A stretch of 64,000 bases of DNA, from assembly GCF_002854065.1 (NCBI RefSeq), contig NZ_CP024147.1; one strand, 5' to 3'. This DNA comes from Escherichia coli. Lineage in GTDB: Bacteria; Pseudomonadota; Gammaproteobacteria; Enterobacterales; Enterobacteriaceae. The translations under genes were made by a program, and so were the position numbers. Below, one piece after another: positions 61,294-61,387 of the stretch. The number at the start of each line of letters is the position of its first letter. Within the stretch, counting starts at the first letter, position 1. The notes under the pieces are model-generated. The model searched no databases, had not been told where the DNA came from, and saw only the letters and a program-made list of their open reading frames with translations.

Positions 61294-61309
61294 GATAAAA
61301 CGTTTTACC
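61294..61309. promoter_or_regulatory. candidate MalI operator half-palindrome
   Basis: GATAAAACGTTTTACC in the malI-malX divergent region. Confidence 0.45.
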
Positions 61310-61371
61310 TTTTATTTATCTTATACCCGCTATTATCGTTGCGTAATGTGATTTATGCCTCACTAAAATTT

Positions 61372-61387
61372 GATAAAACGTTTTATC
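61372..61387. promoter_or_regulatory. candidate MalI operator, perfect 16-bp palindrome
   Basis: GATAAAACGTTTTATC, 50 bp upstream of the malX ATG. Confidence 0.5.

Follow-up and report, generated by a model that had tools for sequence, protein, structure and literature searches.

The malI–malX intergenic region of an Escherichia coli strain: paired MalI operators around a shared CRP site

Two near-identical palindromes lie between the divergently transcribed genes malI and malX in a stretch of E. coli DNA of 64,000 nucleotides (hereafter, the window), and a CRP-like motif lies between them. Which proteins do these elements serve, how are they placed relative to the two promoters, and how far does the arrangement extend beyond E. 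coli? Altogether, our analysis supports the reading, to which we assign a probability of about 96%, that this is the known E. coli malI–malX divergent control region and that its operators and CRP site have already been described. The region is thus a characterised divergent promoter pair with one shared CRP site, one LacI-family repressor and two independent operators, and experimentally validated operators were here recovered from sequence alone. What we add are the coordinates of every element, the correct register of the CRP site and the conservation of the architecture across Enterobacterales; the only material that is even mildly new is evolutionary, and concerns the operator pair in relation to the CRP site and the occurrence of the palindrome core in other lineages.

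Two MalI operators between divergent genes

The source of the window is an E. coli strain other than K-12, with coding flanks that are 99–100% identical to those of other strains, and its RefSeq annotation gives the gene order uidA-uidR-hdhA-malI-malX-malY-add. The protein families agree with this annotation: among the NCBIfam models, the malI product scores 668 bits over its full length against NF007449 ("Mal regulon transcriptional regulator MalI"; cutoff 310), and the malX product scores 1118 bits against NF007509 ("PTS maltose transporter subunit IICB"), while the malY reading frame matches the PatB-family C-S lyase model TIGR04350 with E = 3.5e-87. The cognate repressor gene therefore adjoins malXY in divergent orientation, separated from it by a spacer of 174 bp that is bounded by the two ATG codons, that of malI at 61263 on the complementary strand and that of malX at 61438. 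Every base of this spacer is identical to E. coli K-12 MG1655, in which window position p corresponds to position p + 1,637,917 of NC_000913.3, and published facts on K-12 therefore transfer directly. Of 5,426 complete E. coli genomes, 5,416 contain the 1.6 kb surrounding the site, and 4,996 of 5,412 carry the spacer itself at an identity of 99% or more.

Elsewhere in the window, comparison with strain 100416 shows a 768-bp IS1 at 54324–55091, 100% identical to an annotated IS1B, to be inserted close to the 3' end of the glucuronide transporter gene uidB; strain 100416 has an IS5 in uidC instead. A 1.3-kb IS2 (IS3-family) insertion at 17164–18494 lies between speG and ynfC and is absent from strain CUWW06. 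Positions 1–12516 hold a tail region of a lambdoid prophage, with genes for the tape measure and minor tail protein L, tfaQ and an ISEc31; this region is covered to at least 80% in one place by only 2 of 5,426 complete E. coli genomes, the best being strain 100416.

An earlier note on this DNA had proposed that paired palindromes, one of them perfect, lie 78 bp apart between the divergent malI and malX starts and are MalI operators. Direct reading and a pattern search confirmed both positions and the spacing of 78 bp from start to start (Table 1), with the perfect copy, GATAAAACGTTTTATC, on the malX side and the imperfect copy, GATAAAACGTTTTACC, on the malI side; the two differ at a single base, T to C at position 15. 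The perfect copy consists of GATAAAAC followed by its reverse complement GTTTTATC, and so is a self-complementary dyad within the 14–20 bp range and with the central CG step of LacI/GalR operators. Allowing up to three mismatches, we found four matches to the operator in the 64-kb window against 0.20 expected, and 0 of 100 dinucleotide-preserving shuffles gave as many as four; the two matches outside the spacer carry three mismatches each and both fall within coding sequence.

Table 1 Features of the malI–malX region and further operator matches. Positions count from the first base of the window; conservation refers to an alignment of 70 unique Enterobacterales spacers.
Feature	Position	Strand	Description	Conservation
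malI	60235..61263	-	LacI/GalR-family repressor, 342 aa (NCBIfam and RefSeq annotation)	
malX	61438..63030	+	PTS maltose/glucose EIICB, 530 aa; first gene of the repressed malXY operon	
malY, 5' part	63040..64000	+	C-S lyase, MalT antagonist; gene cut by the window end	
Second RegulonDB CRP site, TTATGTGACAGATAAAACGTTT	61284..61305		-101.5 of malX, +17.5 of malI; overlaps malI-side operator; function doubtful	
malI-proximal MalI operator, GATAAAACGTTTTACC	61294..61309		One base off a perfect palindrome; +3..+18 of malI transcript; autoregulation site	G61294 63/70; 61308 T46/C24; C61309 57/70
malI transcript start (+1), putative	61311	-	From RegulonDB positions -43.5 and +17.5	
malI -10 region, putative, TATAAGAT on minus strand	61318..61325	-	Overlapping hexamers TATAAG and TAAGAT	
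Shared CRP site, TAATGTGATTTATGCCTCACTA	61344..61365		Dyad between 61354 and 61355; -41.5 of malX, -43.5 of malI	TGTGA 61347-61351: 68, 68, 64, 70, 68 of 70; second half-site: C61359 67/70, C61361 66/70, A61362 65/70, C61363 50/70
malX-proximal MalI operator, GATAAAACGTTTTATC	61372..61387		Perfect palindrome; -24..-9 of malX, overlapping -10 hexamer	G61372 70/70; T61386 69/70; C61387 70/70
malX -10 hexamer TATCTT, putative	61384..61389	+	-12..-7; 4-of-6 match; first four bases inside malX operator	Outside operator: T61388 60/70, T61389 70/70
malX transcript start (+1), putative	61396	+	From RegulonDB positions -41.5 (centre 61354.5) and -101.5 (centre 61294.5)	
Operator match, three mismatches	471-486		In 191-aa ORF	
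Operator match, three mismatches	44363-44378		Start of rstB	

The assignment to MalI is carried by published work in which the same 16-mer serves as a tool. The "MalI DNA site" in oligonucleotides D71689 and D71690 (supplement file 3) equals GATAAAACGTTTTATC, and a chromosomal array of 20 copies of the 16-mer gave MalI::mCherry foci in vivo, while no foci formed without the array; the element is in use as a "MalO" array with MalO/MalI fluorescent reporters (PMC5543585). The malX-side palindrome is letter for letter this published site and the malI-side copy is one base away from it. The literature thus provides both the sequence of the operator and its binding by MalI in the cell, and the view that both 16-mers are MalI operators is well supported, as the earlier note had surmised.

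A larger imperfect inverted repeat, with arms at 61285–61303 and 61307–61325 (74% complementary), takes in both the malI-side operator and the malI -10 region; it probably arises as a side effect of the operator palindrome and the A/T-rich flanks.

The CRP site and the two promoters

RegulonDB lists TAATGTGATTTATGCCTCACTA as an activator site at -41.5 of malXY and -43.5 of malI, and a SELEX-chip peak labelled "malI< >malXY" is given the CRP box TGTGATTTATGCCTCA (PMC3105977 supplements). Both malI and malX are among the CRP targets recovered by genomic SELEX (PMC3105977). The central site and its positions at the two promoters are matters of record. In the window, TGTGATTTATGCCTCA occupies 61347–61362 and corresponds to the register TGTGA-N6-CCTCA, in which the second half-site, CCTCA at 61358–61362, keeps the key positions C16, C18 and A19.

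The earlier note had placed a weak CRP-like arrangement, TGTGA...TCACT, near 61347–61366. The location is right; the description as weak is not, and neither is the choice of TCACT as second half-site. We scored the window with a symmetrised log-odds matrix derived from 68 unique RegulonDB cores (PMC3105977 Table S4 part 1), among which the mal sites are absent. The central site scores 8.79 bits, ranks 14th among 63,985 window positions and, in a leave-one-out comparison, outscores 74% of the training sites; 0.035 hits this good are expected in a stretch of the size of the spacer. As a positive control, the known uidA CRP site CGTGATATAGATCGCA at 58309–58324, for which RegulonDB gives a position of -89.5 upstream of uidABC, ranks 7th in the window with the same matrix. 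The central CRP site is thus a good site. Matching to the bare consensus is uninformative by comparison: TGTGA-N6-TCACA with up to two mismatches occurs 32 times in the 64-kb window against 30 expected, which is chance level.

Could CRP instead read TGTGA at 61347–61351 together with TCACT at 61360–61364, the latter starting two bases past CCTCA? The half-sites would then be 8 bp apart about a dyad at 61355/61356, which would put CRP at -40.5 for malX and at -44.5 for malI. In its favour, TCACT matches the consensus half-site TCACA at four of five positions and CCTCA at only three, and C61361 and A61362 are conserved under either register. Against it, the N6 core is the one given by RegulonDB and by SELEX-chip alike; C61359, which is a key position (C16) in the N6 register only, is kept in 67 of 70 Enterobacterales spacers, and C61363, which takes the key C18 position under N8, in 50 of 70; the N6 register retains G5, G7, C16, C18 and A19 and accounts for the score of 8.79 bits; and N8 forms with at most one mismatch occur at chance frequency (two in the 64-kb window against 2.2 expected). 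We consider this shifted register quite improbable and retain the N6 core.

A second RegulonDB entry, TTATGTGACAGATAAAACGTTT, is listed as an activator site at -101.5 of malXY and as a repressor site at +17.5 of malI (PMC3105977 supplements). Together, the four listed CRP positions fix the transcript starts, because only starts at 61396 (plus strand) and 61311 (minus strand), which correspond to MG1655 positions 1699313 and 1699228, satisfy all of them; Cappable-seq supplements contained no coordinates matching these starts. Counted from these putative starts, the operators fall at -24 to -9 of malX and at +3 to +18 of malI. The abstract of Lloyd, Godfrey and Busby (2010) reportedly gives exactly these positions for the MalI operators, and is said to have each promoter repressed independently from its own operator; the agreement between computed and reported positions leaves standing the identification proposed in the earlier note, which was to fall if published operator positions differed. 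Mutagenesis of the operators is reported to form part of that 2010 study.

If the second entry were functional, CRP and MalI would compete for overlapping DNA, malI would be under repression by CRP bound at +17.5, and each promoter would make use of a CRP molecule of its own. RegulonDB's listing speaks for this, as does the grouping of malI–malXY with promoters regulated by "different CRP molecules" (PMC3105977), a wording that reflects the second RegulonDB site, and the matrix score of 6.48 bits (rank 118 in the window) is close to the median of known sites. On the other side, the element has one half-site (TGTGA) only, its other half being operator sequence; this TGTGA, at 61287–61291, is kept in only 31–47 of 70 Enterobacterales spacers as against 64–70 of 70 at the central site; and the SELEX-chip table gives only the central box for this spacer (PMC3105977). 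The function of the second site is therefore doubtful and a role of the kind outlined unlikely. Lloyd and colleagues (2008) reportedly described one shared CRP site, which also counts against a functional second one.

With the starts in place, candidate -10 elements can be named on both sides of the central CRP site. On the malX side, CRP at -41.5, the recognisable -10 element TATCTT and the lack of a good -35 element together correspond to a Class II promoter. On the malI side, two overlapping hexamers are available, TATAAG (61325 to 61320) and TAAGAT (61323 to 61318), the latter at -12 to -7 of malI; TATAAG is the better kept of the two, the form TATAAa being conserved in 50–67 of 70 sequences. 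TATAAG on the malI side and TATCTT on the malX side both start 29.5 bp away from the CRP dyad, and the region is therefore symmetric about the CRP site as far as the -10 elements. The operators are placed asymmetrically about the dyad, with centres 25 bp and 53 bp away. A simple sigma-70 scan found no promoter in the spacer, as would be expected of activator-dependent promoters without a -35 element, and the -10 elements are to be read as putative. None of the annotated sites accounts for a further block, TATTATCG at 61331–61338, which is moderately conserved (37–52 of 70) and lies between the CRP site and the malI -10 region; it contains a -10-like hexamer in either direction, TATTAT on the plus and GATAAT on the minus strand.

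Conservation of the operator pair across lineages

The spacer is too uniform among E. coli genomes to allow footprinting, and one genome per GTDB species was scanned instead with the pattern TAAAACGTTTTA-N50-80-TAAAACGTTTTA, which returned at least 120 loci. Both 12-bp cores were required to be exact, so that their invariance holds by construction and the flanking columns alone are informative. Among the 120 listed loci, tblastn places divergent MalI and MalX orthologues on either side of the pair in 75, and 7 more have one of the two, the other being cut by the end of the locus, giving a total of about 82. These span Escherichia, Salmonella arizonae, Citrobacter, Enterobacter, Klebsiella, Raoultella, Kluyvera, Pluralibacter, Cedecea, Serratia, Morganella and Vibrionaceae, and MalI identity among malI–malX loci goes down to about 40%. 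The pair is thus conserved along with malI–malX in other species, among loci that were chosen by their exact cores. Most Enterobacteriaceae, E. albertii and Salmonella arizonae among them, have a pair that spans 91 bp. In E. coli, its closest relatives within Escherichia and Serratia the span is 90 bp, and in nearly all Vibrionaceae loci it is 102–104 bp.

The alignment of 70 unique Enterobacterales spacers (Table 1, last column) places the malX operator flanks, both half-sites of the N6 register and the malX -10 hexamer among well-kept columns, and the flanks of the malI operator are less conserved than those of the malX operator. No indels occur between 61320 and 61399 in these 70 spacers. 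The alignment has one indel, a base between 61319 and 61320 that 67 of 70 sequences have and E. coli does not; it lies just downstream of the malI-side TATAAa, leaving the distance from CRP to the hexamer the same and altering that from the hexamer to the operator. In E. coli, the loss of this one base might tune autoregulation.

In the Vibrionaceae malI–malX loci, where MalI is about 40–46% identical, the two TAAAACGTTTTA operators are kept and the intervening sequence is unrelated to that of E. coli; TGTGA-N6-TCACA is absent between the operators in the spacers of Vibrio and Photobacterium. Enterobacterales instead have a CRP dyad that sits exactly 29.5 bp from a -10-like hexamer on either side. 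With the pair retained in Vibrionaceae around unrelated sequence, the operators could be older than the CRP site. By this speculation, which we regard as possible and on balance rather unlikely, the operator pair, and not the activator site, would be the ancient invariant, and co-activation of both promoters by CRP would have been installed between pre-existing operators in Enterobacterales. If true, the arrival of CRP in Enterobacterales would leave the regulatory logic of E. coli as published. The Vibrio and Photobacterium spacers (loci L018, L025, L041, L053, L063, L070, L082, L094 and L116) have two further features: between the operators, a terminator-like GC-rich dyad with a T8 run after it, and, outside the malI-side operator, a CGTGATC motif.

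The same scan shows that the core is not the property of MalI. At 38 of the 120 listed loci (for example L004, L015, L019, L027, L036, L061, L069 and L119), paired TAAAACGTTTTA sequences lie 50–80 bp apart and neither a MalI nor a MalX orthologue is found in the vicinity; these loci come from Pedobacter, Chitinophaga, Weissella, Lachnospiraceae, Megamonas, Paenibacillaceae, Chloroflexi and Bacteroides. Another LacI-type gene directly adjoins the pair in 12 of the 38; other neighbours encode SusD, a TonB receptor, MFS, Bmp/PnrA, ROK, GH127 and FAD oxidoreductase proteins. Because such pairs occur at these 38 loci, the core is not unique to MalI, and TAAAACGTTTTA is a generic LacI-family palindrome core that is used outside gamma-proteobacteria by other LacI-type regulators. 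Might the E. coli palindromes, then, be targets of another LacI-family protein, or products of chance, and have nothing to do with MalI? The occurrence of such pairs in other phyla, beside unrelated genes or other LacI-type regulators, is what invites the question. The exact match to the sequence that recruits MalI::mCherry (PMC5543585), the chance expectation of 0.2 in the window and the way in which the pair travels with malI–malX orthologues to about 40% MalI identity reduce the likelihood of such a reading almost to nil, and we keep to MalI as the protein that reads the pair in E. coli.

A model for the control of malI and malX and its relation to known systems

We suggest a model whereby one cAMP–CRP dimer at the dyad 61354/61355 would activate the malX promoter from the Class II position -41.5, taking the place of the missing -35 element, and would at the same time sit at -43.5 of the divergent malI promoter. 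Dimeric MalI, a LacI/GalR-type repressor encoded next door, binds the perfect palindrome at -24 to -9 of malX. The malX operator covers the promoter spacer and part of the -10 element, namely the first four bases of TATCTT, and bound MalI should therefore exclude RNA polymerase and hold malXY off. On the one-mismatch palindrome at +3 to +18 of its own transcript, which lies inside the polymerase footprint, MalI would limit its own synthesis. We infer that steric occlusion is the mechanism of repression at these promoters and that repression is tighter at malX than at malI.

In this model the two operators would act independently and not by way of a DNA loop. Two near-identical operators that flank an activator site at a distance of 78 bp, and a spacing that is almost fixed (78–79 bp) across Enterobacterales, could also point to cooperation in the style of lac and gal, in which a MalI tetramer or two interacting dimers would loop out the 78 bp and both operators would be needed for full repression. 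Several observations argue against this. From centre to centre, the spacing amounts to 78 bp (7.43 turns) in E. coli, 79 bp (7.52 turns) in most other genera and 90–92 bp (8.6–8.8 turns) in Vibrionaceae, and is never integral, so that the operators are off helical phase. In LacI, the C-terminal segment forms the tetramerisation helix; MalI, with its 342 aa, ends at position 327 of the 358-position LacI-type model and thus falls short of the LacI-type C-terminus that holds this segment. The Lloyd 2010 abstract reportedly has each promoter repressed from its own operator, and the fixed spacing is already explained by the set place of each operator in its own promoter. We therefore consider looping very improbable and favour two operators that each serve their own promoter.

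The malI–malX operators of K-12 are the closest known case: the spacer, the 16-mer, the CRP site and the positions of these elements are all identical here, and nothing differs within the feature. In broader terms, the region shares the following properties with LacI/GalR systems. The operators of PurR, of GalR (OE and OI) and of CytR and the cre sites of CcpA are, as here, 16-bp dyads with a central CG step; the repressor is a dimeric protein with a helix-turn-helix and a periplasmic-binding fold that is encoded beside its target; and repression works through an operator that overlaps either the promoter core or the first part of the transcribed region. The MalI half-site, GATAAAAC, sets it apart from other LacI/GalR operators, and, unlike lac and gal, malI–malX offers no evidence for looping. 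The second comparison is with divergent promoters that share a CRP site, as in the model of El-Robh and Busby and at araBAD–araC and xylAB–xylFGHR (PMC3105977), where one CRP dimer serves back-to-back promoters, likewise here. The malX side has the Class II geometry (-41.5) found in such pairs, whereas the malI side differs from them in having CRP at the unusual distance of -43.5. Finally, unlike these shared-CRP pairs, each mal promoter also bears its own copy of an operator for one common repressor.
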